From an uncultured Candidatus Saccharibacteria bacterium (GTDB lineage: Bacteria; Patescibacteriota; Saccharimonadia; Saccharimonadales; UBA10212): 64,000 bases of DNA. How positions within the stretch are numbered: position 1 is the first letter of the stretch; every line of letters begins with the position of its first letter. The notes beneath the pieces are model-generated. The model saw only the letters and a list, made by a program, of their open reading frames with translations, was not told the origin of the DNA and ran no database searches. Both the position numbers and the translations under genes were made by a program. This document shows positions 11,693 through 54,438 of the stretch, piece by piece. Where the stretch lies: the NCBI GenBank assembly GCA_964483315.1, contig CAZAAL010000001.1, forward strand, positions 122,850 through 186,849, in the 5' to 3' direction.

Positions 11693-11696
<4 letters not shown>

Positions 11697-12805
11697 ATAA
11701 CCTTTTTGTTAGTAATTTCAGATATGACACAAAGTAAGTTTTTTTTGAAATGACTTGCTGAAAATGTGCTGGTGTACTCACGTATTAATTTACGGTCCCA
11801 GTGGATACTTTCGGTTTTTATGATTGCTTCATTAATTGAAGCTATTGATTGCTCGTTAAAGAGAATCCCCGTTTGTCCGTCAATGACTGTTTCAAGTGCC
11901 CCACCAGATCCATAACAAATAGCGGGCGTACCAGCAGACATGCACTCAACCCAAGATATACCAAAATCCTCTTCGTTTGCAAAAATACAGGCTTTTGCCT
12001 GATTAACTAATTTAGCTAGTTCGCTTTCGCTGACGTATCCTAAAAATTCTATATTTTTATTTGCAATCGATCTTAGGCTATTGTGCTCTGGACCAGTACC
12101 AGCAACCTTAAGTATTAAGCCATTATTGTTAAAAGCCTCAATAATCAAATCGATTTTTTTAAACACTGTATGACGGCCATATGCTAAGTAAAAGTCTAAC
12201 TTGTTTGATTCTGCTAATTTAAACTTTTCTGTATTAACGGGCGGGTATAGAACAGTGCTTTCGCGTTTGTAGTACTGTTTTATTTGTGATTGTATATTCT
12301 TTGAATTAGCCAGTAGAAAATCAGGATTTTGGGCTGACTGATAATCTAGTTTTTTTAAGAGCGGGTTGAGAATTTTTAAAAATATTCTGGCAAGTGGATC
12401 TAAAAAACCAAAACCAGGATTTTTGATGTATTCGTTAAAATAGCGCCAATAATAATGTGGGGGAGTATGTATATATGCAACGTGCATGGCACCTAGTGTA
12501 CGTACGGCTTTATTTTCGGAGCTTGAACTTGTAATTACTAAATCAAAGCCTGAAAGTTTGGTAAATCGCCAAATTAAATATCTTATCGGCGGAAAAAATT
12601 CGTGTTTATATCTAAGTATTGGAATGTGTTGCAGCCAAGAGGTAATAACGATTCTATCTTTTAGTTCGGGAAATTTATTTTTATCATAAACAAGACAGTA
12701 AATTGGTGCTTCAGGGAAGATTTTTGCTAGTTCAAAAAGAACGTTTTCTGACCCACCCCTGACAGTTAGCCAGTTATGAACTAATGCTACTTTTTTTGGT
12801 TTCAA
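11693..12805 (-). CDS. glycosyltransferase family 4
   Basis: 370 aa. GT4-type C-terminal domain (E..E motif region ANEEDFGISWVECMSAGTPAI). Confidence 0.7.
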
Positions 12806-12808
12806 GAC

Positions 12809-14245: not shown

Positions 14246-14297
14246 TTATTATCTAATCATTATACATCTGTTTATAGACTGTTAAAATAAGTACAAG

Positions 14298-28946: not shown

Positions 28947-29245
28947 TGGCTCCGGGGACTGGATTCGAACCAGCGACCTAGTGGTTACACCTTAATCACT
29001 ACTTTCATAATGTGTGGACTATCTTATCATCCGATTACTCGGAGCAGGGCGCTAATGAGAGTTTATTGTTAGGCTCACTCTCTAGTCTCTGAACCTTCCA
29101 AGATCCTTTATCCTAATTTTGGCTTGGCTGCAGATTAGCATATCTTGCGACTTAGCTTTCCCGCAATTCACCCTATTTTCGAGTTTGGTTACCCAAACAA
29201 GCTGCAATTTTACAGCCACCCGCTCTACCGCTGAGCTACCCCGGA
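28947..29245 (-). tRNA. tRNA-Asn(GUU) interrupted by a 224-nt group I intron in the anticodon loop
   Basis: 5' half (minus strand) is TCCGGGG-TA-GCTC-AGCGGTA-GAGC-G-GGTGG-CTGT, at 29212-29245. 3' half is TAA-CCACT-AGGTC-GCTGG-TTCGAAT-CCAGT-CCCCGGA-G-CCA, at 28947-28987. Joined, they give a 75-nt cloverleaf with loop CUGUUAA, U1-A72 and G73, closely matching bacterial tRNA-Asn. Confidence 0.8.
28988..29211 (-). mobile_element. group I self-splicing intron (IC3-like, similar to the cyanobacterial tRNA-Leu intron core)
   Basis: Core motifs GGGAAAGCUAAG, GCAGCCAAGCC and GGUUCAGAGACUAGAGAG are present. The 5' exon ends in U (GCUGU), which can pair with intron GCAGC (P1). The intron ends in G (AAGGUG). 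There is no internal ORF. Confidence 0.7.
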
Positions 29246-31584: not shown

Positions 31585-31712
31585 AAACACTTGTCAAACA
31601 GATTAAATTGCTTATACTTAATTATTAGTATCACTGACACACAAATAATTTAACAAAAATTGTGCAGTGGGACTCGCACCCTACTACTGTGAATAAGATA
31701 AAAATAACCTGG

Positions 31713-34700
31713 ATGAGAATATTCATGGTCACTGCTGTTATTGTGGCCTTGTTTTTCGTGGTGAGTTGGGGTGTTTCCAAATTAGTACCGGACAAAGTTA
31801 CTTTTAGGGGTAGCATTAAAACCGAAAAAGGCTCATTGCCCGATGGTTCATATGACGTAAGGGTAAGGTCTTTTAATGCGCTAAACTCATCAGACTTGTT
31901 ATACCAAATGGATTTTAAATCCATCCAGGTTAAAGACGGTCAATATGAGCTTGGCTACAATCTAAACAAAGAGTTTGCTTCTGTGCCTGCAGTAGTGGAG
32001 ATTTGTATAGACTCCGGTGATGGGTTTAAGGATAAGGATGGTAATGTATGTGCCGATGGTAGCTCGGACAGTATTTATGACTATGCACTTTGCCCCTACT
32101 ATATGCGGTCTAGGGCTGATGGATCATTCGCTTGGTTGATTAACCGAAAGGTTTACACCGAGCGCAATATGATTAAATGTCCGAATCTTGAAAAAGGCAC
32201 AACAGCTAGTAGTGAAAGCATAATCGAAAAGGCAAACGAGGCTGGGCTTAACGTATCGCTAATAAGCGCTGGCAATAAAAATCAGGTGGTTAACAACATC
32301 ACGAATATCAACCAAGTTGATGATCCGCAAACTCTAGTTATTGAGGGTAACGTGCTTTATATAAGTGGTGGCAATAGTGTAGTTTTACCAAGCTCTGGCT
32401 ATGGGGATACAGTTGATAATGATACGACTTATAGTGCTGGTAGTGGTTTGGTTTTAAACTCTACGACCTTTAGCCGTGAGTCGGGTTCGACCAATGGTCA
32501 GATTGAGGTCTGGGATGGCTCAAACTGGACTGATTTATCTGCCGGGACTAATGGGCAAGTCCTAACTATCGTGGGCGGTACGCCTGTCTGGCAATCAGGC
32601 GGAGCAGAAACTGATGGTGTAATTGGTAACGAGATAACAAATGTTGATGGAACAACTGGCTTGGCTCGAACTGGTACCGGTACTACTGGTGACCCATTTA
32701 TCGTGGCGCTTACCACAACCGGCGTTAGCGCTGGAACTTACAACAATGTCACAGTTAACGCCTACGGGCGTGTTACGTCTGCAAGCAATATTGCTTATCT
32801 GACATCTGAAACCGATGGGATAGTTGGTAATGAGCTAACTAATCTTACGGCGGGTGATGGTAAAGGCATACTTACCCGTAGCGGTACAGGTACCGGTGGA
32901 GACCCATATACCTTGAGCGTAGCTACTTGTGGCTTAAACCAAATTTTTAAATCTAATGGCAGTAGCTGGGCCTGCTCCTCCGACGTCGACACCGACACAA
33001 CCTACTCAGCTGGTAATGGTCTAAGTTTATCTACCACTACTTTTTCAGTTAACTCACCAACTTGTGCTGGCACCGACAAACTCCAATGGAATGGATCAGC
33101 TTTTGTATGTTCAGCTGATGTAGATACCGATACTGACACCACTGACTTTAATGTTTCAGCTCAAGGTACAGTTGGCTCACAAAACATAGCTGATGGTGGA
33201 ACAGTCTCATTCAGTAACGGCACAGGCACTACCGCCACTCGCTCAGGTTCAGCAGTTACCTATAGCCTAAACGATACAGCTGTAACAACTGGCACATATG
33301 GAACTAGTTCTAGTGTTGCTCAGTTCACAGTCGACCAACAAGGTCGAATCACTGGAGCCAGCTCAGTAGCTATAGACTTTGCCGGTAATGCTGTAACTAG
33401 CGTAACAGCCGGCAGTGGACTAACTAACGGTGGTGGCCCCGGAGCAATCACCATTAATGTTGGAGCTGGTAATGGTATTACAGTAAACGCTAACGACATA
33501 ACCGTAGATACTCTAGACTCAGCCGATGCTTTATCTTCAACCACATCAAATGGTTCTGGCTTAGAAGTCCTAGCTTCTGGTATTGGTCTATTACAAGGCT
33601 GTTCAGATAACCAAATCCTTAAATGGAATGAAGCTGGTGATCTATGGGGATGTGCTAATGACACAGATACCGATACCGACACTACAAACTTCAACATTCG
33701 AGCCAATGCCGGAGCTAGCGCCAATATCTCATCCGGCGGTACAGTTAGCTTTGTAGATGGTACTGGTACCACGGCTTCACGCTCTGGTAATGACATAGCC
33801 TTTAATCTAACTACAACTGGGGTTAGTGCTAATAGCTACGGTTCATCTACTCAAGTACCAGTCTTTACAGTAGATGCCTACGGACGTATATCTAGTGTTA
33901 CTAATACCAGTATTAACTTCCCGGCAGAGGTAGATGGTGTAGTAGGCAATGAAGTTACCAATGCCACATCAAATGCTGGCTTAACTCGTTCTGGTACTGG
34001 CACAGGTGGTGACCCATACACTCTAGGCGTATTACTACCATCTGCTACTGATGCCTTATCTTCAACAACTTCAACAGGCTCTGGTTTAGAACTCACATCA
34101 TCAGGACTTTCATTAATCCAAGGCTGTTCTAATAACCAAATCCTTAAATGGAATGAGACAAGTGATGTTTGGGCCTGCTCCTCCGACGTCGACACCGACA
34201 CAACCTACTCAGCTGGTAATGGTCTAAGTTTATCTACCACTACTTTTTCAGTTAACTCACCAACTTGTGCTGGCACCGACAAACTCCAATGGAATGGATC
34301 AGCTTTTGTATGTTCAGCTGATGTAGATACCGATACTGACACCACTGACTTTAATGTTTCAGCTCAAGGTACAGTTGGCTCACAAAACATAGCTGATGGT
34401 GGAACAGTCTCATTCAGTAACGGCACAGGCACTACCGCCACTCGCTCAGGTTCAGCAGTTACCTATAGCCTAAACGATACAGCTGTAACAACTGGCACAT
34501 ATGGAACTAGTTCTAGTGTTGCTCAGTTCACAGTCGACCAACAAGGTCGAATCACTGGAGCCAGCTCAGTAGCTATAGACTTTGCCGGTAATGCTGTAAC
34601 TAGCGTAACAGCCGGCAGTGGACTAACTAACGGTGGTGGCCCCGGAGCAATCACCATTAATGTTGGAGCTGGTAATGGTATTACAGTAAACGCTAACGAC

Positions 34701-36926
34701 ATAACCGTAGATACTCTAGACTCAGCCGATGCTTTATCTTCAACCACATCAAATGGTTCTGGCTTAGAAGTCCTAGCTTCTGGTATTGGTCTATTACAAG
34801 GCTGTTCAGATAACCAAATCCTTAAATGGAATGAAGCTGGTGATCTATGGGGATGTGCGGCGGATGCAAGCGGTGGCTCAATGACAATTGGCACGATCAA
34901 TTCACAAACAAAAAGCGCTGACGGAGCTGTAATATCATCAGGCGTATTGTATATGCAAACTGCCGACGGCACTAACCCTGGCTTAGTGAGTACTGGTGCA
35001 CAAAGTTTTGCAGGCAATAAAACATTTAGTGATGCATTAATCGCAACTTGTACGAATACTTCTACTAATGTTTTATGTGACGGCGGCAACACTAGGGGCG
35101 CAGGAATCGTCTTAGGATCTAACGATAACTTTGGCCTGACTTTTGAAACAAACAACACTACTGCAATGACAATTGCTAACAATGGTGCAATTACTATTGG
35201 AGCAACAACGATTGATCAGGCTATAACAATTGATAATGGGACAGGTGCGCTTAGCCTAGGTAATAGTAGTGATGCAAAGACAATCAATATTGGTACCGGT
35301 ACTGGTATCGATACTATCAATATTGGTACCGGTGCAACCTCTGCCGATGCAATAACCTTTGGTAATACGGGGGTAGCTACTACCCTAACATTCAACTCTG
35401 GAGTTTCTACTACTACTGCAATGTCATTTAACCTAAATTCATTAACTAGCGGCAACGGACTGGTCTTAAGCGCAACTAGCGTGACATCGGGCGAGGTATT
35501 CGAGATTCTTGGGCCTTCTAGCAGGAGTATTTTAAGAGTCAAAAATGAATCGGCTGACCCACTGGATGATCAACGGGTAATAATTGGTCAGGGTGGTTTG
35601 GCAAGCTCTAAACCGGATGAGCTTGCTCGGGATCAGCTCTATGTGTTTGGTCGAATTAACTATAGCTGGAACATGTTTAGCCAAGATTTTTTGGGTGGAG
35701 CTACGAATCTAACAGCGGATGGCACGGCATTTAACGCATACTATGACGAAGTGGCAGGTTCTGGTGGTACTGCACCATCTGGAGTTATGAACCAACAAAG
35801 TCTTGCATCTGGCTCTGGTGCTGGTCGGTTAACATTTAGTGGTACCCTTGGTACAGGACCTTGGGCTAGCTTGTATGGCACGAACGTTAACGTTACAGAA
35901 CGCTCGCTCAACCCGGTCTTTGAGGCTCGCATACAGGCAAGCTCAAACACAGACCAAAGGGCAATCGCTGGCTTTACAGATATTGCACTTAACACGGCCA
36001 TTGCAGCCGATACAAACAATTCAGCTAACGAGGTATTCTTTAGAAAAACAGCTGCTGGCACAAACTGGGAGGCAGTCACCCGAAACGCAAGCGGAGCAGA
36101 AAATGTCACGGGATTAGGAACCGCTTGTGCTGGAGGTACAGCGTGTACAACTGCTGCAATGCGGACAATGAGGATCGAGCTAGAAAACGTTGGCGCAAAC
36201 GGAACCGCTAGGTTTTATATTGATGGTACATTGGTAGCGACTCATACTACCGCAGCTGTGCCGGCTAACACTACAAGACTTGGCTGGAAGATTGGCACAA
36301 CACCAACCACAACAACCTACACTGGTCGGGTAGTTGATATAGATTACGTTAGAGTTTGGAGTGACGACCCTCCAACTGATGTGTTGGGCCAGGCATTAAG
36401 TACTACAATTATTGATAATTCTAACCAAGAGCAAGTTGATCAGATTGAGCTAACGACATTTGATTTAGTTGGTAACCAAGAAGAGCTAGCTAACTTAATC
36501 GATGGCCTAAGAGATGATGTTAATTGGCTAAAAGGTCAGGGTGTAGCCGATGCAGCTCTGAATGGGGGTTTGGTATCCGGCAATACAACTTTTGCTGATT
36601 TTGTGACATTTAATAGCGGGGTCACGTTTGACTCTACAGTAGATTTTGGAGGGGATGTTAAATTTATTGGTCAGGCTGAATTTGATGGGCACGTAATTTT
36701 TGGAACCGATGGTGCTGGTACGCTCGAGCTTGAAGCGGGTCAAACATCAACTAGATTTGCATTTGCAAAACCTTATCAAAAGCCTCCTGTTGTTACTGTA
36801 ACACCACTTGATTATGATGCCGGTTTTAGGCTCACAAACGTAGACGAAACAGGCTTTACGATTACTATTTCGACTAGTCAGAATACTCAAACTAGGTTTA
36901 ACTGGATTGTTGTTGGGCGTCAATAG
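31713..36926 (+). CDS. giant repeat-containing cell-surface protein with C-terminal H-type-lectin-like domain (candidate adhesin)
   Basis: The ORF track gives a GTG start at 31662. ATG 31713 (MRIFMVTAVIVALFFVVSWG, a TM/signal anchor) is more plausible. The body has ~200-aa G/T/S-rich repeats with the recurring motif GTYG..S.V..FTVD..GRI(T/S). The C-terminus FAFAKPYQKPPVVTVTPLDYDAGFRLTNVDETGFTITISTSQNTQTRFNWIVVG fits the H-type lectin fold pattern. Confidence 0.75.
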   Translation: MRIFMVTAVIVALFFVVSWGVSKLVPDKVTFRGSIKTEKGSLPDGSYDVRVRSFNALNSSDLLYQMDFKSIQVKDGQYELGYNLNKEFASVPAVVEICIDSGDGFKDKDGNVCADGSSDSIYDYALCPYYMRSRADGSFAWLINRKVYTERNMIKCPNLEKGTTASSESIIEKANEAGLNVSLISAGNKNQVVNNITNINQVDDPQTLVIEGNVLYISGGNSVVLPSSGYGDTVDNDTTYSAGSGLVLNSTTFSRESGSTNGQIEVWDGSNWTDLSAGTNGQVLTIVGGTPVWQSGGAETDGVIGNEITNVDGTTGLARTGTGTTGDPFIVALTTTGVSAGTYNNVTVNAYGRVTSASNIAYLTSETDGIVGNELTNLTAGDGKGILTRSGTGTGGDPYTLSVATCGLNQIFKSNGSSWACSSDVDTDTTYSAGNGLSLSTTTFSVNSPTCAGTDKLQWNGSAFVCSADVDTDTDTTDFNVSAQGTVGSQNIADGGTVSFSNGTGTTATRSGSAVTYSLNDTAVTTGTYGTSSSVAQFTVDQQGRITGASSVAIDFAGNAVTSVTAGSGLTNGGGPGAITINVGAGNGITVNANDITVDTLDSADALSSTTSNGSGLEVLASGIGLLQGCSDNQILKWNEAGDLWGCANDTDTDTDTTNFNIRANAGASANISSGGTVSFVDGTGTTASRSGNDIAFNLTTTGVSANSYGSSTQVPVFTVDAYGRISSVTNTSINFPAEVDGVVGNEVTNATSNAGLTRSGTGTGGDPYTLGVLLPSATDALSSTTSTGSGLELTSSGLSLIQGCSNNQILKWNETSDVWACSSDVDTDTTYSAGNGLSLSTTTFSVNSPTCAGTDKLQWNGSAFVCSADVDTDTDTTDFNVSAQGTVGSQNIADGGTVSFSNGTGTTATRSGSAVTYSLNDTAVTTGTYGTSSSVAQFTVDQQGRITGASSVAIDFAGNAVTSVTAGSGLTNGGGPGAITINVGAGNGITVNANDITVDTLDSADALSSTTSNGSGLEVLASGIGLLQGCSDNQILKWNEAGDLWGCAADASGGSMTIGTINSQTKSADGAVISSGVLYMQTADGTNPGLVSTGAQSFAGNKTFSDALIATCTNTSTNVLCDGGNTRGAGIVLGSNDNFGLTFETNNTTAMTIANNGAITIGATTIDQAITIDNGTGALSLGNSSDAKTINIGTGTGIDTINIGTGATSADAITFGNTGVATTLTFNSGVSTTTAMSFNLNSLTSGNGLVLSATSVTSGEVFEILGPSSRSILRVKNESADPLDDQRVIIGQGGLASSKPDELARDQLYVFGRINYSWNMFSQDFLGGATNLTADGTAFNAYYDEVAGSGGTAPSGVMNQQSLASGSGAGRLTFSGTLGTGPWASLYGTNVNVTERSLNPVFEARIQASSNTDQRAIAGFTDIALNTAIAADTNNSANEVFFRKTAAGTNWEAVTRNASGAENVTGLGTACAGGTACTTAAMRTMRIELENVGANGTARFYIDGTLVATHTTAAVPANTTRLGWKIGTTPTTTTYTGRVVDIDYVRVWSDDPPTDVLGQALSTTIIDNSNQEQVDQIELTTFDLVGNQEELANLIDGLRDDVNWLKGQGVADAALNGGLVSGNTTFADFVTFNSGVTFDSTVDFGGDVKFIGQAEFDGHVIFGTDGAGTLELEAGQTSTRFAFAKPYQKPPVVTVTPLDYDAGFRLTNVDETGFTITISTSQNTQTRFNWIVVGRQ
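32967..33655 (+). repeat. 689-bp direct repeat, copy 1 (inside the giant gene)
   Basis: Identical to 34170-34858 (offset 1203 bp). Encodes an identical 229-aa block. Confidence 0.85.
34170..34858 (+). repeat. 689-bp direct repeat, copy 2 (inside the giant gene)
   Basis: By eye it is a perfect copy of 32967-33655. The 514-bp segment between the copies is a diverged relative of the same unit. Confidence 0.85.
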
Positions 36927-38650: not shown

Positions 38651-38754
38651 TATTTTATATTATAGAATAAAACAAAACATTAATCAATAACTAATAAATT
38701 ACTACAGACATACTATATTATTCATGTTAGCATTAATTTACTTAACAAATAATT

Positions 38755-38905
38755 TGCTGGAAGCCGGTGTAAATCCGGCACTGTGCCGCAACGGTTACTA
38801 TGAGACACCCTTAAAAGGGTTTCTCATCGCGCGGGGCCATGGAATGAATCCATCGCTCCGGCTGCTCTTGCCAGAATAGGAAAAGAGCAGGAGCGGTCCG
38901 CAATA
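38755..38905 (+). promoter_or_regulatory. cobalamin (B12) riboswitch-like element
   Basis: cuGGAAGCCGGUGUAAAUCCGGCACUGUGCCGCAACGGUUAcu matches the conserved cobalamin-riboswitch core (GGAAnCCGGUGnnAAUCCGGnGCnGnnCCGCnACnGUnA). A B12-box-like GGCCAUGG follows. Recalled from memory, not searched. Confidence 0.45.
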
Positions 38906-38964
38906 ATTTGCGGATTCGAATTTATTTCGAAAGCTCCGATGAGAAAAACCTGGGTTTTTCTCAT
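38879..38964 (-). repeat. structured repeat element, copy 1 (hairpin A ATGAGAAAAACC/GGTTTTTCTCAT + two-hairpin domain + UGCUCUUUUCC)
   Basis: Shares its ends and overall architecture with 54352-54438 in inverted orientation, with compensatory changes in the enclosing stem. Confidence 0.6.
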
Positions 38965-39062
38965 AGAAAGTCCGATACAGCTTAAATTCTCTCGAGCAAG
39001 AGTAATACTTAACGTGTTAAGTATATATTTAACCCTTGCTTTAGTGGAGTAGGGGTATTTTT

Positions 39063-40382
39063 GTGTCAGTTCTAGAATTCGAACCTGTCGTAAAATCTAG
39101 TATAGAGCCAAATCTTGAGTCTTTAAGGGCAAAAAGAGTTGCTAGTTCGGTTATGGCATTTAGACGTGCCGAGCAAGAACCTGATCCATATATTCGTAAA
39201 GCTATATATGAACACGTTTATGATCAAGAAACCACTCATATTTGTGAGATTTTAAATGGCAAAGTCGAAACAGAGATTCCATTTGAGGTTCGTAAAGGCC
39301 GACTTACGGCGATTTGCGAAGATGGGCCAGTTGACTGGCAAGAATTTAGCAAAAACAACTTTTTGTATGCTGATTTGTTAGCTAAAAGCGACTCATCACT
39401 AAAACCGTATTTAAGGATTGCCGAGGTTGAGGTGGAAGAAGCATTAGAACAGCTCGAGATAGTTAAAGCCGGCGAACCAAAAACTACTGTAAGACTATCG
39501 CTTTGTGGCGATGACATCTTTTCGTCCAATGCACTTAAAAAAATTGGAAGATTGCCTGAAAAACAAAGAGCTATGCTAAGAGTTAGTGTTTTTGATGGCC
39601 AAAACTTAAGGCTGTATACTCGATCAATTGATGGAATGAGCTTAGAATCTGGAAAAAAATTTTTAAAAGAAAATTTTGGCATCGAGCTACCTGATAGGGC
39701 TGATTCAGTAGACGTTCTAAAGGCACGACCAACTTTAGATGGCGCTCATCATGAGCTAGCCGATAACTTAACACCTTCACAAACGGGGATAGATACTTAT
39801 AAATTTGTTATAAATCGCCCAGACTTATTAAAAGTATATTTAAAATCATTAGAAGATCTAGCGCGCTCTGATTATGATTTTGAAACAATTGTTTTGCATG
39901 CAAATGAACTACGAAACGATATTATGGCCAGTTTTAGTGAAGCGTTTGAGGGAAAGGCAATTTTAGCTACAGCTGAGTCTATTGCTGGTGCAGGTGAGCG
40001 GGCACGTCAAGAAGGCAAGGAGTTTTTTGGGTGCGATATGGTAGTAACGAGCATGCACGAAAAAACTGGTCTTGGCATTAGGCAGGGCGAAGTCGATGTA
40101 GACTGCGTAAAATGTCCAAAATGCTCACACCTTGGTATGGATAAAGGATCATTTAGACAAGGATTTTGGCATTGTAGGGGCTGTGGGGTAAAAAAGGCAT
40201 TTAATAAAAATGGCCAAAAAGTTTTGAATCAAAAACAAAAAAAGGATAATCTTAACCAAGAAGGATTATATGAATGGTGGACACTAGTAAAACAACAAGA
40301 CAAAATGAAGCGTCAGCAAAAAATGATGCAAGAAAAATCTCGGCAGCAAATCGAAAAAGAGAAGCTAGCGCATGCAGCTTAG
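39063..40382 (+). CDS. hypothetical protein with C-terminal zinc ribbon and K/Q-rich tail
   Basis: GTG start with an AGGGG SD upstream. CVKCPKC...CRGC near the C-terminus. 439 aa. Confidence 0.5.
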   Translation: MSVLEFEPVVKSSIEPNLESLRAKRVASSVMAFRRAEQEPDPYIRKAIYEHVYDQETTHICEILNGKVETEIPFEVRKGRLTAICEDGPVDWQEFSKNNFLYADLLAKSDSSLKPYLRIAEVEVEEALEQLEIVKAGEPKTTVRLSLCGDDIFSSNALKKIGRLPEKQRAMLRVSVFDGQNLRLYTRSIDGMSLESGKKFLKENFGIELPDRADSVDVLKARPTLDGAHHELADNLTPSQTGIDTYKFVINRPDLLKVYLKSLEDLARSDYDFETIVLHANELRNDIMASFSEAFEGKAILATAESIAGAGERARQEGKEFFGCDMVVTSMHEKTGLGIRQGEVDVDCVKCPKCSHLGMDKGSFRQGFWHCRGCGVKKAFNKNGQKVLNQKQKKDNLNQEGLYEWWTLVKQQDKMKRQQKMMQEKSRQQIEKEKLAHAA

Positions 40383-49724: not shown

Positions 49725-51569
49725 GTGACAATGGGTAATAAAAAAGAGGATAAAGCGTCCGAGGATATTAATCCAGCAACCGAAAGTAATGAAGTGGTTT
49801 TAGAGGGTGTATCGAGTGAGGCACAAGCAAGCAAACCTGGCATTAAGGCAAAACTCCACAATTTTAAAAACTGGTACTTAACTCATAAAAAAATAGCGAT
49901 TCCTCTTACAGTTGTGGCGTTACTTTTATTATTAATGCTTGTTCCGTATACTCGATACAAAATCTTAGGACTGTTCATCCAAAAAGACGTAACTGTTTTT
50001 GTAACCGACAGTAAATCAGATTCGGTTGTTAGTGACGCTGACGTTAGTATTGGCTCAGTTAGTTCCAAGACCAACGGTAAAGGGTTGGCTGAGCTAAAGA
50101 ATGTTCCTGTTGGACAATATACACTAAAAGTTACAAAAAAATATTATAATGATAGCCAACAAAATATTACTGTAACAACAGCCGAGAATCAGGCTTTCAA
50201 AGTAAAATTAGAGGCAACAGGTAGGCAGGTTAGTGTAAAGGTAAGCAATAGCATTAGCCAAAAAAGTGTTGAGGGGATTAGTATAAAAGCGGGTGAAGCT
50301 GAGGCTAAGACCGACGATAAGGGGGAGGCTGTATTAGTTTTGCCGGTAGGTACAACTAAAGTGAATGCTGAACTTTCTGGTGAAGGATATGTTGCTAAAA
50401 AAATTGAAATCGAAGCGAGTGATACTGAGATAAAACAAAATGATGAAACGGTTACTCCGGCAGGCAAGATCTACTTTTTATCCAAGGCGAGTGGCAAAAT
50501 CGATGTCGTAAAAACTAACCTAGACGGAACTGACAGAAAGGTAGTGTTAGCCGGGACGGGCAAGGAAGAGGAGTATGGCACAGTATTACTTGCTAGCCGT
50601 GACTGGAAATATTTAGCCTTGCATTCAAAACGGGACGACAAACCGGCCAAACTATACTTAATCGAGACTAATGGCGATAAGTTAACCACAATGGACGAAG
50701 GCGATGCTAGCTTTGATTTAGTTGGTTGGAGCAACGATAAATTTGTCTACAAGGTTACCCGAAATGCTCCAAAGCAGTGGGAGTCAAAAAAGTATGCCCT
50801 TAAAAGCTACGATGCACCTGCTAAAAAAATAAACTTGATTGATGAGTCTCAGGCAATAAAAAAAGATTATACCTATACTGATCCCGAAACAAACACAACT
50901 TTTGTATCTGGCTCAAGTTATGCATGGCAGATTTTTGGGAGTGTTTATATCATCGACTCAAAGCTTATTTATGAAAAAGACTGGTCGCCTGACAGTTTTT
51001 ATTCAGATGTTATAAACGATAAAAAAGACGAAGTTCTGCAAGTATCGGATACTGGTGGTGGTAAAAAACTATTAAAGGATTTCCAAAACATAAGTGGTCA
51101 AGTTAGTTACTTGCAATCATTTTTATATGAGCCTCGTGAAATCTATTACAAAGCTAGCTATAGCGGTGCCGAAAAATACTATGAATATACATCGGATGGT
51201 CAGTTTAAGGAGGACTCTGGTATAAAGAATGATTTTGAAAAATACTATGGCCCGACTGGTTACTACAAGACATACTTGTTATCGCCTTCTGCTAAACAGA
51301 CTTTCTGGTCCGAAGATCGGGATGGCAAACGTGTTTTGTTTACAGGCAATCAAGATGCTGAGGGCGAAAAACAGGTGGCAGTTGTATCGGATGGCCAAAC
51401 CTACGGCTGGTTTACAGATGATTATTTACTAGTTAGTAAAAAGTCTAGCGAACTTTATATTATGCCTCAAACAGGTATATCCAACGAATCCCAACTTGTT
51501 AAAATAAGTGATTATCACAGACCAGCATATCAGTACTATGGCTATGGTGGTGGCTACGGCGGACTTTAA
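49725..51569 (+). CDS. membrane-anchored protein with CarboxypepD_reg-like domains and TolB-like beta-propeller region (paralog A)
   Basis: TM at aa ~55-75. Ig-like segments (VFVTDSKSDSVVSDADVSIG..GQYTLKV). Paralogous to 52374-54341. Confidence 0.5.
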   Translation: MTMGNKKEDKASEDINPATESNEVVLEGVSSEAQASKPGIKAKLHNFKNWYLTHKKIAIPLTVVALLLLLMLVPYTRYKILGLFIQKDVTVFVTDSKSDSVVSDADVSIGSVSSKTNGKGLAELKNVPVGQYTLKVTKKYYNDSQQNITVTTAENQAFKVKLEATGRQVSVKVSNSISQKSVEGISIKAGEAEAKTDDKGEAVLVLPVGTTKVNAELSGEGYVAKKIEIEASDTEIKQNDETVTPAGKIYFLSKASGKIDVVKTNLDGTDRKVVLAGTGKEEEYGTVLLASRDWKYLALHSKRDDKPAKLYLIETNGDKLTTMDEGDASFDLVGWSNDKFVYKVTRNAPKQWESKKYALKSYDAPAKKINLIDESQAIKKDYTYTDPETNTTFVSGSSYAWQIFGSVYIIDSKLIYEKDWSPDSFYSDVINDKKDEVLQVSDTGGGKKLLKDFQNISGQVSYLQSFLYEPREIYYKASYSGAEKYYEYTSDGQFKEDSGIKNDFEKYYGPTGYYKTYLLSPSAKQTFWSEDRDGKRVLFTGNQDAEGEKQVAVVSDGQTYGWFTDDYLLVSKKSSELYIMPQTGISNESQLVKISDYHRPAYQYYGYGGGYGGL

Positions 51570-51679
51570 TACTAACCACATAAATTAACTCAGACAGCTA
51601 TCTACATAATTACACCATATGGTGTAATTATGTAGATGATTTAAGGAGTTATTTTTAGTTAATTTATAAAAAAGTCAAA

Positions 51680-52300
51680 TTATTTGTTAGCTAGGGATTT
51701 CCAGATGTACCAGCTGGCTACCGATTCGTATGGCGACCAACCATTCTTTTTAGCGATTTTTTGCATAACTAAAGCATCTGGTAAAGCTTTTAAGTTGTAT
51801 AAGTGCATAATACCTTTTTTAATTCCCAAATCGCCTACCGGTAAAATGTCGAGCCTACCAACACTAAAAATCATAAACATATCAGCACTCCATTGACCAA
51901 TGCCTTTAACTGAGGTTAGCTGTTGGCTAAGCTCAGAGTTAGGTAAAGTGGCTATATGAGCCATATCCAGACGGCCATCAATGATGTGTTGAGCCAGGTC
52001 TTTCATATAATTTATTTTTTGATAACTAACCCCGCAAGCCCTTATTTTATCGTTGTCAGCAATAAGTAGTTGCTGAGGCGATGGAACTTGGCCATTAAAC
52101 AAATCAATCACTCGTTGCCAAATGGTTGAGGCAGCTTTTGTTGATAACTGTTGGCTTACGATACTACTTACAAGCTCACCGTAATAATCTTTGTGTGGCT
52201 TAATCGTACAGTCGCCATATTTTTTTATGACTGATCCGAGGATTGGATCATTTTTTTCAAGATGATTTTGTGCAATTTTAATTTTAGCTTTAAAGTTCAC
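51680..52300 (-). CDS. HhH-GPD family DNA glycosylase (3-methyladenine DNA glycosylase II/AlkA-like)
   Basis: LTSVKGIGQWSADMFMIFSVGRLDILPVGDLGIKKG carries the helix-hairpin-helix and catalytic Asp. Confidence 0.8.
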   Translation of the reverse strand: MNFKAKIKIAQNHLEKNDPILGSVIKKYGDCTIKPHKDYYGELVSSIVSQQLSTKAASTIWQRVIDLFNGQVPSPQQLLIADNDKIRACGVSYQKINYMKDLAQHIIDGRLDMAHIATLPNSELSQQLTSVKGIGQWSADMFMIFSVGRLDILPVGDLGIKKGIMHLYNLKALPDALVMQKIAKKNGWSPYESVASWYIWKSLANK

Positions 52301-52373: not shown

Positions 52374-54341
52374 ATGGCAAAGATTATTGTAAAAAACCAT
52401 GATGATGAAGAAACCGACAAACTCAGTGTCGAAGAATTAAATGCGCGCCTGAAAGATTCTATAAAAACTGAACCAGATGAAATAACAGAAGAAGAAATTG
52501 AAGATGAGCTAAAACAAAACCTAGAAGACCCTGCTGATGATGAGCAGTGGCTAAACGAGTTTGGCGATGAGCCAGATGAGAAAGATGCTCCCAGCGAACC
52601 TGACAATCCAGAAGATACAAAAGTTGATGAGCAAGAGCTTGATGACGCCGAGCTAAGTCAGGCAGTTGAGGACATAGAAAAAACCGATAGTAACGAACTG
52701 CTGCAAAAACAAGACGAAGAAATTGCAGGGCAAGAGGCAGTATCAACACCAAAAGGGTTAAGGGCTAAAATCAGCCACTATTTTAAAAGCTGGTGGAATA
52801 ACAAACGTCTGCGTAATCTAACCTTTTTAGGTATTGGGATTTTTGTTTTGGCGATAATGCTAATACCTACTACTCGTTACTTTATCTTGAATGCATTTGG
52901 AGTAAGAGCAACATCATCACTTACAGTACTAGACTTAACTACCAGTCAGCCATTAAAAAACGTAACAGTTGAGCTCGCTGGACAATCTGCTCAAACAGGC
53001 AGTGATGGAAAAGCTTATCTGAGCAACTTAAAACTTGGCCCAACCCAACTTTATATTCATAAAACTGCCTTTGCTGATGTTACCCAGGACATGACGATTG
53101 GTTTGGGCTCTAACCCTTTAGGAGAATTTAAACTTAAAGCAACAGGGGCTCAGTATAGCTTTGTTGTAACTGATTGGCTTAGCGGGCAACCCATCGAAAA
53201 GGTTGAAGCAAGCTCCGGTGATGCTAGTGCGGTATCTGATAAGGACGGAAAAGTTGTATTGACTGTACCTAACCCAGAATCCGAAACAGTCGAAGTCCAA
53301 ATATCTTACAATAACTACCGAACCGAAAAAGTAAAAATCAACGCGGATGATAAATCTGTCCAAAAAATATCGATTGTGCCTGCCAGAAAACACATATTTG
53401 TGAGCAATAGAACAGGTAAATTTGATGTATATAAAATTGATGTTGATGGTAAGAACGAACAAGTTTTGTTGGCTGGAACAGGCAGCGAGCGCGATGACAT
53501 GGTTTTAATGCCACAATACGATGGTGGGGTAGTCGCACTTGTATCTACACGAGAAAATATTCGCAACAAAGATGGGTATCTGATGAGTGGACTTTACATG
53601 GTAGATGTAAAAACTGGCACAACCAAAAAAGTAGTTAGTTCAGAACGTATTCAGCCGATTCAGTGGATAGGCAAGCGTTTAATCTATGTAACAATCGCCG
53701 AAGGCGCAAGTGCCGAAAACCCAAAACGTCACAGACTGATGACCTATAATCTAGACGAAAATACCAACAAAGAGATATCAGCAACAAATTACTTTAATGA
53801 TGTTATGGTAGCGGCTGGTAGGGTTTACTATGCACCAAGCAACGCATACAATATCAATCCAGCCAACGCTCGATTATTTGTGGTTAATGCTGATGGTGGC
53901 AATAAGCAGACCATCTTAGGGCAAGAAGTTTGGAATATATTTAGATCAAGCTATGAAAAATTATCACTTGCCACGTCTACTGATTGGTATAGCTATAAAC
54001 TAGGTGATTCAACTGCTGTAAAACTAGGCGGTCCACCATCTAATCAAACTAGCCGACTTTATGTTGATAATAATGATTTTACAAAGTCAGTATGGAGCGA
54101 AGAACGTGACGGAAAAGGCACTTTGCTAGAGTATGATATTAAATCAACCAAGGATAAATTACTAAAATCTCAAGCGGGCATTAAAGCCCCATATTATTGG
54201 TTAAGTCCGAGCTATATTGTTTATAGACTCAATAGTGACACCGAAACAGCTGATTATGTAATTAGTACGCAGGGTGGTGAAGCTAAAAAAATTAAAGATG
54301 TGTCTAATATCGGTGGCATAGATCGTTGGTACTACTATTAA
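52374..54341 (+). CDS. membrane-anchored protein with CarboxypepD_reg-like domains and TolB-like beta-propeller region (paralog B)
   Basis: Acidic N-terminal 130 aa, a TM helix, then the same domain order as 49725-51569 (e.g. KFDVYKIDVDGKNEQVLLAGTGSERDD versus KIDVVKTNLDGTDRKVVLAGTGKEEEYG). Confidence 0.5.
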   Translation: MAKIIVKNHDDEETDKLSVEELNARLKDSIKTEPDEITEEEIEDELKQNLEDPADDEQWLNEFGDEPDEKDAPSEPDNPEDTKVDEQELDDAELSQAVEDIEKTDSNELLQKQDEEIAGQEAVSTPKGLRAKISHYFKSWWNNKRLRNLTFLGIGIFVLAIMLIPTTRYFILNAFGVRATSSLTVLDLTTSQPLKNVTVELAGQSAQTGSDGKAYLSNLKLGPTQLYIHKTAFADVTQDMTIGLGSNPLGEFKLKATGAQYSFVVTDWLSGQPIEKVEASSGDASAVSDKDGKVVLTVPNPESETVEVQISYNNYRTEKVKINADDKSVQKISIVPARKHIFVSNRTGKFDVYKIDVDGKNEQVLLAGTGSERDDMVLMPQYDGGVVALVSTRENIRNKDGYLMSGLYMVDVKTGTTKKVVSSERIQPIQWIGKRLIYVTIAEGASAENPKRHRLMTYNLDENTNKEISATNYFNDVMVAAGRVYYAPSNAYNINPANARLFVVNADGGNKQTILGQEVWNIFRSSYEKLSLATSTDWYSYKLGDSTAVKLGGPPSNQTSRLYVDNNDFTKSVWSEERDGKGTLLEYDIKSTKDKLLKSQAGIKAPYYWLSPSYIVYRLNSDTETADYVISTQGGEAKKIKDVSNIGGIDRWYYY

Positions 54342-54351: not shown

Positions 54352-54438
54352 ATGAGAAAAACCTAGGTTTTTCTCATCGGACCTGACGTAATAAATCCGT
54401 CTTTCAGCCTTTGGCTGAAACCGGTCCTGCTCTTTTCC
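54352..54438 (+). repeat. structured repeat element, copy 2
   Basis: Hairpin A ATGAGAAAAACC ta GGTTTTTCTCAT, then the outer stem CGGACC/GGTCCG enclosing hairpins GACG..CGTC and TTTCAGCC..GGCTGAAA, then UGCUCUUUUCC. Begins 10 nt after the stop of 52374-54341. Confidence 0.6.

Follow-up and report, generated by a model that had tools for sequence, protein, structure and literature searches.

Structured elements at the two loci

Within the window (the whole 64,000-nucleotide stretch of DNA that was analyzed), three copies of a small folded element are present: copy 2 at 54352-54438 on the plus strand, copy 1 at 38879-38964 on the minus strand, and a third copy at 38800-38872 on the plus strand. 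Copy 2 starts 10 nt past the stop codon of a 655-aa gene (52374-54341), just where the initial annotation of this DNA had placed it. The third copy and copy 1 stand in a tail-to-tail arrangement in a riboswitch leader, and a 439-aa ORF (39063-40382) with a GUG start directly follows the expression-platform hairpin and its U run. Each copy consists of a first hairpin (hairpin A), a second hairpin (hp2), and a tail, as follows.

38752-38799, plus strand: 5′ half of the cobalamin-clan aptamer core (AAUUUGCUGGAAGCCGGUGUAAAUCCGGCACUGUGCCGCAACGGUUACU), host sequence outside the repeat (RF00174)
38800-38872, plus strand, sense to the riboswitch leader: third copy (“A2” type), whole (covariance model, 71 bits, this copy being one of the model's 12 training sequences)
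38800-38827, plus strand: hairpin A of the third copy, AUGAGACACCC-UUAAAA-GGGUUUCUCAU
38828-38862, plus strand: hp2 of the third copy, followed by the linker UG
38865-38872, plus strand: tail of the third copy, CUCUUGCC
38873-38878, no strand: spacer AGAAUA (6 nt) between the two tails of the inverted pair
38879-38964, minus strand, antisense to the riboswitch leader: copy 1, whole (covariance model, 50 bits)
38879-38890, minus strand: tail of copy 1, read on this strand as CUGCUCUUUUCC
38891-38938, minus strand: hp2 of copy 1, with two inner hairpins
38939-38964, minus strand: hairpin A of copy 1
38965-38989, plus strand: 3′ half of the aptamer core (AGAAAGUCCGAUACAGCUUAAAUUC; B12-box-like), read in the sequence
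39032-39062, plus strand: terminator-like hairpin and U run, the riboswitch expression platform (terminator scan)
54352-54377, plus strand: hairpin A of copy 2, AUGAGAAAAACC-UA-GGUUUUUCUCAU (pattern match, fold, covariance model)
54378-54429, plus strand: hp2 of copy 2, with the enclosing stem GGACC/GGUCC and two inner hairpins, then the linker CUG (alignment, fold)
54430-54438, plus strand: pyrimidine tail of copy 2, CUCUUUUCC (mirror of the hairpin A 3′ arm)

Hairpin A in the form ATGAGAAAAACC-NN-GGTTTTTCTCAT has exactly two exact matches in the window, those of copies 1 and 2, while the number expected from 100 shuffles is 0. The two loci form a 49-nt inverted repeat with 88% complementarity. 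Read in the same sense, the copies have in common hairpin A, CGGA, the AATAAAT loop, and the closing stem, as well as the tail CTGCTCTTTTCC. The enclosing stem carries a paired substitution between them (GGAGC/GCUCC in copy 1 versus GGACC/GGUCC in copy 2), and the two inner hairpins differ in sequence and have the same topology. The fold of copy 2 reaches −33.9 kcal/mol (z = −3.99 versus shuffles). These results bear out the initial annotation, which had described the copies as a repeat in opposite orientation, with compensatory changes in the enclosing stem and unlike inner hairpins of like topology. A covariance model gives exactly three matches in the window, with the third copy scoring best, and copy 2 at 51 bits. 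Copy 1 had been assigned the span 38801-38964; an element does lie at this locus, although its true extent is 38879-38964 on the minus strand, and the supposed degenerate palindrome at 38801-38827 is actually hairpin A of the complete third copy.

The inverted pair in the riboswitch leader

How is the inverted pair accommodated in its host? The riboswitch probably belongs to the cobalamin clan (Rfam clan CL00101). It matches RF00174 with 28.2 bits (E 2.4e-5), below the gathering score of 31.5, and the model skips the inserted pair; the insertion-free orthologue L113 (loci are designated by L numbers) matches RF01482 with 36 bits (E 2.6e-5), below the gathering score of 50. The core GGAA-CCGGUG-AAAUCCGG-CUG-CCGCAACGGU, the B12-box-like AGUCCGAUAC, the closing helix, and the expression platform before the gene are all present, and the core is also conserved in L110, L113, L111, and L190. 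In the 3′ half of the aptamer, CAGC..AAAUU closes on AAUUUGCUG. Rather than merely overlapping the 3′ side of the putative B12 riboswitch, as proposed initially for copy 1, the pair lies within the aptamer itself, flanked by GCAACGGUUACU and AGAAAGUCCGAUACAGC, where the third copy and copy 1 take the place of the short P6 hairpin. The two tails of the pair are mutually pairable (CUGCUCUU/AAGAGCAG). The tail-to-tail pair would form one long composite hairpin in place of P6, which the riboswitch may tolerate because P6 stays closed.

Among the orthologous riboswitch leaders, the pair is present in L110 and absent in L113 and L111. Comparison of the filled sites (window, L110) with the empty sites (L113, L111) reveals no target-site duplication, the sign of mobility that the initial annotation had suggested looking for, and the single units lack ordinary terminal inverted repeats. 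The suggestion of a mobile repeat stands insofar as the element is gained and lost between genomes, as seen in leaders with and without the pair and in copies within 23S rRNA, while a classical MITE is not supported. Even as a mere mobile repeat, the element would demonstrate that a cobalamin riboswitch and 23S rRNA can both accommodate the same composite hairpin.

Family members and shared architecture

An exact-pattern scan of species genomes recovered the same architecture at 17 loci, nearly all labeled Candidatus Saccharibacteria, the ultra-small bacteria of the Candidate Phyla Radiation (CPR). The proposed search for further copies was carried out with the covariance model, built from 12 copies, at candidate loci from pattern scans that fixed part of hairpin A and part of the tail. 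It yielded 91 copies (the window, one orthologous locus, and 75 scan loci), carried by Saccharibacteria MAGs and unlabeled metagenome contigs. Simpler relatives of the element are present in other CPR lineages.

The element is 55-110 nt long, and its unit starts with (GUA)AUGAG. On the strand carrying the structural features, which we call the el strand, the 5′ arm of hairpin A is rich in purines (AUGAGAnAAACC) and its 3′ arm is made of pyrimidines; one unpaired C comes after the hairpin. Next comes hp2, variable in sequence and constant in structure, with a conserved bulged G and a conserved G·U pair at its base. A UG linker and a pyrimidine tail of 9-10 nt complete the 3′ end. The center of hairpin A is between 2 and about 9 nt long, an insertion of ~35 nt is present in one arm of three copies, and the commonest form has a conserved C·U mismatch.

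Across the 91 copies, 22 of the 24 modeled pairs in both hairpins show compensatory (double) changes, 92.6% of the cells pair, and the covariation score is 0.407, as compared to 0.107 when shuffled and at most 0.08 in slid controls. The hairpin A arms also co-vary, from AAA/UUU to CCC/GGG. The el strand carries 40 G·U pairs, versus 6 on its complement, and is the more stable strand in 38 of 43 cases (p = 8e-7). The structural features are confined to this strand, in the antisense copies as well. The element is not a chance repeat, and the selected secondary structure claimed at the outset is confirmed as that of a single strand. The other early proposal, an operator for a dimeric regulator, is not supported, in view of the variable center, the arm insertions, the co-varying arms, and the C·U mismatch that breaks the dyad.

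The elements apparently constitute a large, so far undescribed family in Saccharibacteria. At the gathering thresholds, Rfam 15 has no match to the element at either window locus, and at E values up to 10 the copy 1 locus gives just spurious matches (L10_leader, 21 bits; mir-8512, 14 bits). Likewise, no Rfam family covers the element at L190 (permissive E values) or at 20 related loci (gathering thresholds). A full-text literature search returned nothing on a triple helix or a repeat in Saccharibacteria, and the sole entry for this phylum in Weinberg et al. 2017 is the lysM-TM7 motif. Two scans of a viral collection of 2.9 million contigs gave one chance match and 0 family members, and we accordingly rejected a phage origin.

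Correspondence between the tail and hairpin A

The tail tracks the purine arm of hairpin A. In the parallel register, C stands opposite each G and U opposite each A, with arm position 7 skipped. At register 0, 356 of the 372 purine positions (96%) are compatible with C+·G-C or U·A-U triples, the first three triples of the metagenome set being fixed by the design of the scan pattern. The compatibility falls to 35-43% upon a slide of ±1 and is 54% in the antiparallel direction; on these grounds, we rejected a tail paired with hairpin A in antiparallel Watson-Crick fashion. When the tails are shuffled among the 60 unique types, the count is 320.6 ± 4.5 (maximum 335), and 0 of 5000 shuffles reach the observed value, although the copies are phylogenetically related and these statistics overstate their independence; roughly ten independent switches were counted. 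In copy 2, 7 of 7 purine positions are triple-compatible.

The correspondence extends to the variants. For arm lengths of 3, 4, 5, and 6, the U run in the tail is one shorter than the middle arm segment. Rare arms are accompanied by their own matching tails: GAGAGGAGG by CUCUCCACC (L157), GAG(C)GGGGG by CUC(A)CCCC (L125), and GAGAGG(C)AAACC by CUCUCC-UUUCC (L114 partner). This tail-to-hairpin-A covariation, the third copy, and the pair architecture were absent from the initial annotation.

Because the tail co-varies with the first hairpin as a three-stranded helix requires, the pattern fits an intramolecular pyrimidine-motif (Hoogsteen, major-groove) triple helix, in the order purine-loop-pyrimidine-[hp2]-pyrimidine. 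The parallel third strand and the three-strand covariation that characterize such a helix are both found in the element sequences. The C+·G-C triples require cytosine protonation. At the top of hairpin A, there is an apparent C-for-C correspondence without a canonical triple, which limits the evidence for the triplex. The sequence by itself would be compatible with either RNA or single-stranded DNA as the triplex strand.

Similar strand arrangements are known from other systems. Designed intramolecular DNA triplexes (purine-loop-pyrimidine-loop-pyrimidine), whose third strand, of pyrimidines, is parallel to the purine strand, have the same strand order and polarity; they are synthetic oligonucleotides, whereas the element is natural and its second “loop” is a whole co-varying hairpin. 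In the ENE/MALAT1-type triple helices (KSHV PAN RNA, MALAT1, and the transposable-element ENEs), U·A-U and C+·G-C major-groove triples bury the 3′ tract of the transcript, and in MALAT1 the run of triples is broken by a one-position “reset,” which the one-position skip of the element resembles. The roles of the strands differ, however. An ENE uses a U-rich internal loop to clamp an A-rich 3′ tail; the element has neither, and here it is the pyrimidine 3′ tail that would be the Hoogsteen strand on a purine-pyrimidine hairpin (R-loop-Y-linker-Y). Moreover, the Saccharibacteria element is bacterial, multi-copy, and found in both orientations.

Genomic positions and orientation

Where do the copies lie relative to genes? 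Sense copies begin 1-14 nt past stop codons or tRNA 3′ ends, and about half of all copies are antisense to their neighbors (approximate tally: 14 sense, 20 antisense, 9 divergent, and 2 convergent). The antisense copies place hairpin A 3-14 nt upstream of 22 tRNA genes, and also occur in 23S and 5S rRNA leaders and in the 5′ UTRs of ribosomal-protein genes; in all of these leaders they retain the el-strand features. Many copies sit between a conserved TATAAT promoter and a tRNA gene. Within 23S rRNA, there is a homologous pair in L114, and single copies are found in L130 (two) and L164, the last at helix 45, a classic intervening-sequence site. All four 23S-internal copies are antisense. In L190, a sense copy lies inside another riboswitch aptamer, in a different loop.

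The window, L110, and L114 each contain a tail-to-tail pair that joins a CGCGC-type unit to a CGGAGC-type unit with two inner hairpins, and L004 has a tail-to-tail pair of two CGCGC-junction units. The flanks of the L114 pair show only an ambiguous CAG/ACAGTA repeat. The element sites are kept across deep divergence: protein identity at the two loci of the window is 48-55%, and several genomes carry the element at the same tRNA species. The site of copy 2 is conserved in L157, where the protein is 48% identical over the last 178 aa and the 214-aa neighbor is conserved; the L157 hairpin A differs from that of copy 2, and the L157 tail matches its own hairpin A. Copies of the same genome do not have near-identical hp2 sequences (3 copies in the window, 4 in L130).

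We rejected several simple accounts of these positions. A link with the replication strand fails, since the GC skew of the el strand is positive at 35 loci and negative at 36. An antisense element as the terminator of a convergent gene, with the tRNA nested in its 3′ UTR, would need a convergent far-side neighbor, which is found in only 10 of 21 cases. A sigma-70 promoter at the apex of hairpin A (TAGGTT or TACGGT) would suit many of the A1-type copies that precede tRNAs, but fails for the A2-type copies and several loop variants and cannot account for the covariation. Finally, hairpin A opens with AUG, and a small ORF (MRKT*) would be possible; however, the hp2 lengths are not multiples of three and stops come early.

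Like REP/BIME sequences, the element is a short structured intergenic repeat, inserted in either orientation and gained or lost between genomes; BIMEs are often inverted pairs of two sub-types, as are the pairs in the window, L110, and L114, and have been proposed to stabilize mRNA 3′ ends. The passage of PMC3733652 that defines REPs describes imperfect palindromes of 20-40 nt with a GTAG or CGTC tag at one end. By comparison, the element spans 55-110 nt with two domains and a tail, lacks a GTAG or CGTC tag, occurs at 3 copies in 64 kb, is conserved over a class-level lineage rather than being species-specific, and is oriented independently of GC skew. The 23S rRNA intervening sequences offer another parallel, in that related copies and a homologous pair lie within 23S as extended hairpins with the host fold intact, just as the window pair lies in riboswitch P6. 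Intervening sequences are nevertheless rRNA-specific and are not known to have a conserved unit, whereas the element is also found after ORFs, before tRNAs, and in riboswitches.

Function and alternative explanations

The best joint explanation, whose chances of being right or wrong as a whole seem to us evenly balanced, is a family of structured elements with a triple-helix pattern that function as a 3′-end cap or weak terminator and spread as a gained-and-lost module. Judging from their sequence and position, the sense copies are probably such caps or weak terminators. In a sense copy, e.g., copy 2 past its stop codon, hp2 and the tail look like a weak intrinsic terminator. The tail would fold back into hairpin A and bury the 3′ end of the transcript, yielding a 3′-end-forming, exonuclease-resistant cap, and the module as such could be gained, lost, and inserted in either orientation.

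The terminator module considered in the initial annotation is at best part of this story. As in intrinsic terminators, a G+C-rich hairpin base is followed by a pyrimidine/U-rich tract of ~9 nt, which is as long as the RNA-DNA hybrid of an elongation complex, and sense copies lie right past stop codons. In contrast to intrinsic terminators, the tract (CUCUUUUCC or CUCUUCCC) is not itself a U run, its part adjoining hp2 (UGCUC) is not U-rich, an extra conserved upstream hairpin is mirrored by the tail, and many copies are placed or oriented where termination would be impossible or harmful. A simple terminator scan flags the last inner hairpin and tail of copy 2 only marginally (5-bp stem, tail CTGCTCTTTT) and does not flag the A2-type tail of the third copy. 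Copy 2 does end a transcription unit in the sense orientation, but the family does not share this position, as the antisense copies outnumber the sense copies between co-oriented genes. Furthermore, sense copies are followed by a canonical terminator in L117, L121, L017, and L173 and by only a ribosome-binding site in L178, L198, L203, and L215, and the sense copy of L190 lies within an aptamer, all of which argues against a terminator role. More broadly, the antisense half of the copies, with their el-strand features intact, counts against a general sense-strand RNA function.

One alternative is a selfish, non-autonomous element mobilized in the form of single-stranded DNA, comparable to REP/BIME with RAYT or to a hairpin-ended IS200/IS605 derivative. 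A host or element enzyme would recognize hairpin A and the triplex on the el strand, RNA effects would be secondary, and orientation would be filtered only by harm to genes. We regard this as possible, though rather unlikely. It would account for the persistence of el-strand features in antisense copies, the presence or absence of the pair among orthologous riboswitches, the pair and single copies within 23S (L114, L130, L164), the copy in a different loop of the L190 riboswitch, the use of both orientations, and the BIME-like pairs of two sub-types; the antisense direction of all four 23S-internal copies is expected from a filter against a sense-strand terminator. Its weak points are the absence of near-identical hp2 sequences in the window and L130, which gives no sign of recent bursts, the conservation of sites across deep divergence, and the independence of orientation from GC skew, as single-strand transposons and REPs follow the replication strand. 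In addition, the riboswitch insertion has no target-site duplication, no transposase or RAYT gene was noticed (this was not searched for systematically), no copy occurs in the viral contigs, and the one-position skip resembles an A-form RNA “reset,” which a DNA triplex would not need. A purely DNA-level role is quite improbable, with hairpin A as a palindromic operator for a dimeric protein, or with the mirror repeat adopting an H-DNA or cruciform structure where DNA is supercoiled close to strong promoters. In its favor, some hairpin A copies are perfect palindromes with 12-bp arms and a 2-nt center, an awkward shape for an RNA hairpin, and the two strands of hairpin A read almost alike; the 3′ arm together with the tail makes up a homopyrimidine mirror repeat of the kind classically associated with H-DNA; and many copies adjoin TATAAT promoters. 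The variable center, the arm insertions, and the C·U mismatch tell against it here as well, the arm covariation is needless for duplex recognition, and the G·U asymmetry favors one strand while a cruciform needs both. Furthermore, the U count of the tail tracks the A count of the 5′ arm and not the T count of the 3′ arm, the reverse of what H-DNA on a duplex predicts.

By analogy with HK022 put RNA and rrn boxB-boxA, the element could instead be a cis-acting RNA that alters RNA polymerase or recruits Nus factors, as a processive antitermination or pause element, which we consider improbable. HK022 put RNA is ~70 nt long and V-shaped, has two stem-loops, the first stem of which forms a triplex, and binds the β′ zinc-binding domain (PMC9378689). 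The element is similar in size (~71 nt) and layout, with two stem-loops, a minimal linker of one unpaired base, and the first stem in a putative triplex. The put triplex is in the minor groove within stem I, however, and put RNA is phage-specific, lies in sense downstream of promoters, and has no sequence similarity to the element. Several sense copies do lie just upstream of canonical terminators, and the tail holds GCUCUUU, which resembles the boxA core (E. coli rrn UGCUCUUUAACAA), with the L063 tail UGUUCUUUU resembling the Gram-positive form. The rare tails CUCUCCACC and CUCACCCC lack the boxA core and still match hairpin A. Moreover, antitermination would be expected in the operons of rRNA, tRNA, and ribosomal proteins, yet there the element nearly always runs antisense, as it does to 23S or 5S rRNA in L130, L179, and L220, and no sense boxA (GCUCUUUA core) occurs in the ~850 nt upstream of 23S in L130. 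Finally, two ordinary Rho-independent terminators sharing a stem sequence by chance are extremely improbable. Hairpins of the kind GAGAAAAACC..GGTTTTTCTC with flanking A and T runs are generic terminators in many phyla; still, 0 chance matches are expected in the window, the 91 homologous copies have common junctions, the bulged G, the G·U pair, and the tail, one copy is antisense inside a riboswitch, and the covariation reaches into the tail.

If the triple-helix reading of the cap or weak terminator is right, this conserved triplex of hairpin and tail, in multiple copies, would define a novel structural class, present throughout Saccharibacteria and in simpler forms in other CPR lineages, and a first handle on RNA 3′-end biology and transcription-unit boundaries in the CPR, a field in which, to our knowledge, almost nothing is known. 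RNA triple helices cap transcript ends in a few viral and vertebrate RNAs and in transposon RNAs of plants and fungi, while the only bacterial triplexes we know of are within riboswitch pseudoknots or put RNA. The triplex would be easy to test, as synthetic RNAs of 70 nt are enough.

A wider and more doubtful extension of this explanation is that the hairpin with its mirrored tail is an RNA triple-helix device in general use at transcript ends among CPR bacteria, and possibly DPANN archaea. Antisense copies in the leaders of tRNAs, rRNAs, and ribosomal-protein genes would then not be passengers; the transcripts of these leaders, which bear a single-stranded purine tract (GGAAAAGAGCAG) with complementarity to all tails of the cell, might open the mRNA triple helices in trans, so that mRNA stability would depend on how active the translation-apparatus promoters are. 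Such a device would be the bacterial counterpart of the eukaryotic and viral ENE triple helix. The element would also be useful as an annotation marker in Saccharibacteria genomes, e.g., for tRNA promoter-leader cassettes.

Copies of the element in the window

The element consists, in the 5′-to-3′ direction, of hairpin A (a purine 5′ arm and a pyrimidine 3′ arm), a second hairpin or domain (hp2), a linker, and a pyrimidine tail. The window contains three copies:

38879-38964 (-): copy 1
54352-54438 (+): copy 2
38800-38872 (+): third copy, AUGAGACACCC-UUAAAA-GGGUUUCUCAU / CGCGCGGGGCCAUGGAAUGAAUCCAUCGCUCCGGC / UG / CUCUUGCC

Hairpin A ATGAGAAAAACC-NN-GGTTTTTCTCAT occurs in the window only at 38939-38964 and 54352-54377, with up to three mismatches allowed, and has no match in 100 dinucleotide-preserving shuffles of the window. 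The copy 1 and copy 2 loci were detected by a repeat finder as a 49-nt inverted repeat (88% complementary). When copy 1 is reverse-complemented, the two share hairpin A, the CGGA junction, the closing stem, and CUGCUCUUUUCC, and their same-sense alignment reveals a common AAUAAAU loop in the first inner hairpin. The enclosing stem carries a paired change (GGAGC/GCUCC versus GGACC/GGUCC), the first inner hairpin differs by two double changes, and the second has the same shape with unrelated sequences. Copy 2 folds with an energy of -33.9 kcal/mol (z = -3.99). The initial annotation therefore described this repeat correctly, as the shared parts, the paired change in the enclosing stem, and the inner hairpins of the same topology can all be read in the sequence. 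In contrast, its “degenerate palindrome” at 38801-38827 is really hairpin A of the complete third unit. The finding is real rather than due to chance, and is more interesting than first thought.

In the covariance model search, the third copy—one of the 12 training sequences of the model—scores 71 bits, followed by copy 2 with 51 bits and copy 1 with 50 bits. No other score in the 64-kb window exceeds 14 bits, except for re-reads of the palindromes of the three copies. The third copy and copy 1 lie tail-to-tail with 6-nt spacing, and thus 38800-38964 forms a single composite, imperfect long palindrome.

A Saccharibacteria-wide family

A scan of one genome per species with the pattern GAGAAAAACC-N2-6-GGTTTTTCTC yielded 108 loci, the majority of which are unrelated terminators. 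The family members (17 of the 108, nearly all labelled Candidatus Saccharibacteria) have hairpin A followed by CGCGCsGG, a hairpin, and CysGGCUGCUCUUUUCC. A metagenome scan anchored on the junctions only (CTCATCGCGCNGG...GGCTGCTC) yielded at least 120 loci, with 53 clear members among the matches listed. Searching the window, the related locus L110, and 75 scan loci with the covariance model produced 91 copies, several of them outside every pattern selection. In the 91-copy alignment, 92.6% of the cells are paired, and both partners have changed in 22 of the 24 pairs. The alignment has a covariation score of 0.407, as compared to 0.107 ± 0.007 for shuffled alignments and at most 0.08 with slid partners.

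Several irregularities are conserved: a C.U mismatch at hairpin A arm position 7 in the commonest form (AUGAGACAAACC/GGUUUUUCUCAU), a single unpaired C between hairpin A and hp2, an hp2 base with a bulged G and a G.U pair, and the UG linker preceding the tail. The hp2 domain consists of one hairpin, two hairpins (window copies 1 and 2), or a very short one (L017). Beyond the model, many loci have either GUA or a small hairpin, GGCG-GCUU-CGCC, with UU after it, just 5′ of hairpin A, and a subset has a YURAGCURCAAG motif on the 3′ side; the unit seems to extend past the model on both sides. Rfam 15 gave no relevant match for the element, in the window at gathering thresholds or at the copy 1 locus also at permissive E-values, and a full-text literature search found nothing on this Saccharibacteria element.

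The tail as a predicted third strand

The tail CUCUUUUCC mirrors the hairpin A 3′ arm (GGUUUUUCUC). When both are read 5′ to 3′, it presents C for each G and U for each A of the purine 5′ arm. This correspondence is meaningless for Watson-Crick pairing, and exactly fits a putative parallel Hoogsteen third strand (C+.G-C, U.A-U). Classical intramolecular triplex oligonucleotides have the same strand order: purine arm, loop, pyrimidine arm, linker, and pyrimidine tail. Changes in hairpin A are accompanied by changes in the tail.

Hairpin A arm types and their tails (arm; tail; occurrence)
GAGA(C)AAACC; CUCU-UUUCC; commonest form
GAGA(C)ACCC; CUCU-UCCC; A2 type, the hairpin A subtype of the third copy
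GAGA(G)AACC; CUCU-UUCC; L121
ACGAGA(C)AACC; CUCU-UUCC; L137
GAGA(C)AAAAC; CUCU-UUUUC; L130, L164, L224
GAGAGGAGG; CUCUCCACC; L157
GAG(C)GGGGG; CUC(A)CCCC; L125
GAGAGG(C)AAACC; CUCUCC-UUUCC; L114 partner

Among the 60 unique types, the tails are triple-compatible with 356 of the 372 purine positions in register 0 with arm position 7 skipped, as compared to 35% at register +1, 43% at -1, 54% in the antiparallel direction, and 82% without the skip. Tails shuffled among the types give 320.6 ± 4.5 compatible positions (maximum 335). The number of U residues in the tail equals the length of the arm middle segment minus one in 48 of the 60 types, over four different lengths. Since CTCAT and GCTGCTC were fixed by the scan patterns, the signal comes from the positions beyond them. 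The copies are related by descent, and we counted roughly ten independent arm/tail switches. At the top of the hairpin A stem, the correspondence is C for C, without a canonical triple. This skipping of a single position is reminiscent of the MALAT1 triple helix and its reset. An extra hairpin of about 35 nt (UUACCCC...GGGGACCCC) in the hairpin A 3′ arm, at L110 3843-3903, L152 1402-1470, and L177 1125-1190, sits opposite this skipped position 7.

Which strand adopts the fold? The hp2 stems contain 40 G.U pairs on the element strand versus 6 on its complement, an asymmetry mostly due to one conserved G.U pair, and of 43 unique sequences, 38 fold more stably on the element strand (p = 8e-7). 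The 23 copies antisense to their neighbouring genes have the same asymmetry (22 versus 2 G.U pairs), and antisense copies also keep the triple-helix correspondence. Taken together, the comparisons show a Saccharibacteria-wide family of elements structured as single strands, with two co-varying hairpins and a tail whose covariation with hairpin A is that expected of a major-groove triple helix.

An insertion or expansion in a putative cobalamin riboswitch

The third copy, sense to the leader transcript, and copy 1, antisense to it, lie within a riboswitch leader, bracketed on the plus strand by GCUGGAAGCCGGUGUAAAUCCGGCACUGUGCCGCAACGGUUACU and AGAAAGUCCGAUACAGCUUAAAUUC.

39032-39062 (+): terminator-like hairpin and U run, 3′ of the pair and before the GUG start of the 439-aa ORF
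39063-40382 (+): ORF of the riboswitch-controlled 439-aa protein

The Rfam cobalamin model matches the leader with 28.2 bits (E 2.4e-5), just short of its threshold of 31.5, and passes over the insert. Starting from proteins homologous to the 439-aa product, we retrieved three orthologous leaders. In L110 (55% protein identity), the pair is present at the unchanged position with compensatory differences, and one arm holds an extra nested 35-nt hairpin. The pair is absent from L113 (54%), which has a minimal hairpin GGCAGUAAAACUGC between GCAACGGUAA and AAGUCCGAUAC, and from L111 (41%), which has just CCCACGAGGG at that position. L113 matches the AdoCbl model RF01482 with 36 bits (E 2.6e-5; gathering score 50), and its minimal hairpin corresponds to P6. 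In one lineage, then, P6 gave way to the pair, by insertion or by expansion.

A second cobalamin-type riboswitch of the same kind (L190 3595-3935, +), no longer recognised by Rfam, holds a single sense copy inside a GGUGnAAAUCC hairpin, in another loop than the window pair, and also has an A+T-rich P6 extension of about 170 nt. The 439-aa protein has no Pfam domain and, besides itself, 5 homologues among 5.8 billion clusters; its gene has conserved synteny with an Na+/H+ exchanger-TrkA_N gene. It is a candidate novel B12-related protein of Saccharibacteria.

Genomic placement and conservation

Sense copies begin 1-14 nt past stop codons (window copy 2, at 10 nt; L063, L117, L121, L125, L136, L157, and L229) or about 5 nt past tRNA 3′ ends (L010 and L119). 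They are followed by a canonical terminator in L117, L121, L017, and L173, by just a ribosome-binding site in L178, L198, L203, and L215, and in some cases by a promoter, such as TGCTACAAT 50 nt beyond window copy 2.

Antisense copies place hairpin A 3-14 nt 5′ of 22 tRNA genes of ten specificities, and are typically preceded, in the sense of the tRNA, by a conserved TATAAT-CACCTCTGTTATT promoter. Others lie upstream of 5S rRNA (L179) and 23S rRNA (L130, twice; L220), in the 5′ UTRs of rplJ, rplK, rplW, and rpsN, and inside 23S rRNA (L114, where the pair is homologous to that of the window; two copies in L130; and L164, in helix 45). The family has been gained, lost, and inserted into other structured RNAs. 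By crude ORF calls, about 14 sense and 20 antisense copies lie between co-oriented genes, 9 copies between divergent genes, and 2 between convergent ones. The orientation of the copies does not follow GC skew (35 versus 36), and scans of the viral collection found no copy.

The sites are conserved over long evolutionary distances. At L157, the element lies between orthologues of the 655-aa gene (48% identical in the C-terminal 178 aa) and its 214-aa neighbour—the copy 2 site—but has the hairpin GAGAGGAGG with the matching tail CUCUCCACC. The riboswitch pair is common to the window and L110 at 55% protein identity, and at the genes for Lys, His, Pro, Met, Gly, and Ala tRNAs, the antisense copy recurs in several genomes. 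The hp2 sequences are not shared among the copies of one genome (three in the window; four in L130).

Several arrangements accompany these copies. A conserved promoter-leader cassette, common to Saccharibacteria tRNA genes, reads TATAAT-CACCTCTGTT(A)TT, about 20 nt, antisense element, 3-14 nt, and tRNA; examples are L145, L161, L039, L209, L182, L087, and L025 (25-45 nt past the tail). The L130 rRNA operon (69-5008, -) runs 16S, two tRNAs, and 23S, with four antisense copies, two within 23S; its tRNA region has near-duplicate segments and a possible intron. In L203 (5100-5290, -) and L149 (395-590, -), the first 15 msrA codons, through the active-site GCFWG, flank the element on both sides, and an ORF continues from the msrA fragment through the element. 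In each of the two species, the two versions differ mainly synonymously, as though selection still acted on the peptide of the upstream fragment.

Proposed mechanism and alternatives

The structural claim is well supported by the covariation; the mechanism is one that we infer by reasoning. In sense copies, hp2 and the tail would act in the RNA as a weak terminator-like module, and the tail would fold back into hairpin A to yield a protected transcript 3′ end. As the tail of about 9 nt has the length of the RNA-DNA hybrid, triplex capture could even aid transcript release. The riboswitch pair would form a long P6 and be tolerated there.

Both the insertions and the two orientations would also be accounted for by a mobile element moving as single-strand DNA, in the manner of REP/BIME or IS200/IS605, but the lack of recent copies, the independence of orientation from GC skew, and the deep conservation of the sites would be left unexplained. 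A put- or boxA-like polymerase-modifying RNA would account for the layout and the GCUCUUU core, but would leave the antisense placement in rRNA operons unexplained. Readings at the DNA level are disfavoured by the variable centre of hairpin A, by the strand asymmetry, and by the fact that the tail tracks the 5′ arm and not the 3′ arm. We place the element with structured intergenic repeats, with terminator-like elements, and with RNA triple helices, and experiments have a fair chance of moving it to a new class.

Hairpins with mirrored tails in other lineages

Outside Saccharibacteria, 31 of the 178 strand instances of genome-scan hairpins have a mirrored tail within 8 nt (at most one mismatch), as compared to 3.6 (maximum 9) when the downstream sequence is shuffled and 7 with the reversed pattern. 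Independent cases are Peribacteria L062 (GAGAGAAAAA with CUCUCUUUUCCC), Peregrinibacteria L098, another Patescibacterium (L036), Aenigmarchaeota L064 and L043, and a multi-copy repeat in Clostridia MAGs. Accordingly, the core motif seems to be the hairpin and its mirrored tail; the Saccharibacteria hp2 seems to be an inserted linker hairpin.

The multi-copy repeat, found in Oscillospiraceae, Ruminiclostridium, and other Bacillota MAGs and often at contig ends, consists of the hairpin UUGGAGAAAAACC...GGUUUUUCUCCAA, the mirrored tail GCCUCUUUUCCCUCC, and further hairpins (L005, L006, L012, L014, L015, L026, L031, L044, L045, L060, L061, L070, L077-L079, L089, L095, L106, and L108). This repeat may represent the end of a mobile element.

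Other features of the window

28996-29221 (-): Group I intron (Rfam RF00028, 72.5 bits, E 1.9e-16)
31662-36926 (+): 1754-aa ORF
51582-51655: imperfect palindrome with 39-nt arms (79%)

Flanked by two genes that converge on it (49725-51569, +, and 51680-52300, -), the palindrome probably serves as a bidirectional terminator; it scores 11.5 bits with the covariance model and does not belong to the element family. ARAGORN called no tRNA in the whole 64 kb; tRNA-like 5′ halves adjoining the element in L023 and L025 are likewise uncalled, which suggests intron-containing tRNA genes. The cumulative GC skew reaches its minimum at about 12000-14300, and the long ORFs are all on the minus strand over 1584-14245 and then mostly on the plus strand from 14298; this region looks like a replication origin. 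The 1754-aa ORF contains an exact 300-nt internal duplication (32967-33266 / 34170-34469), besides 152-nt repeats detected by the repeat finder.
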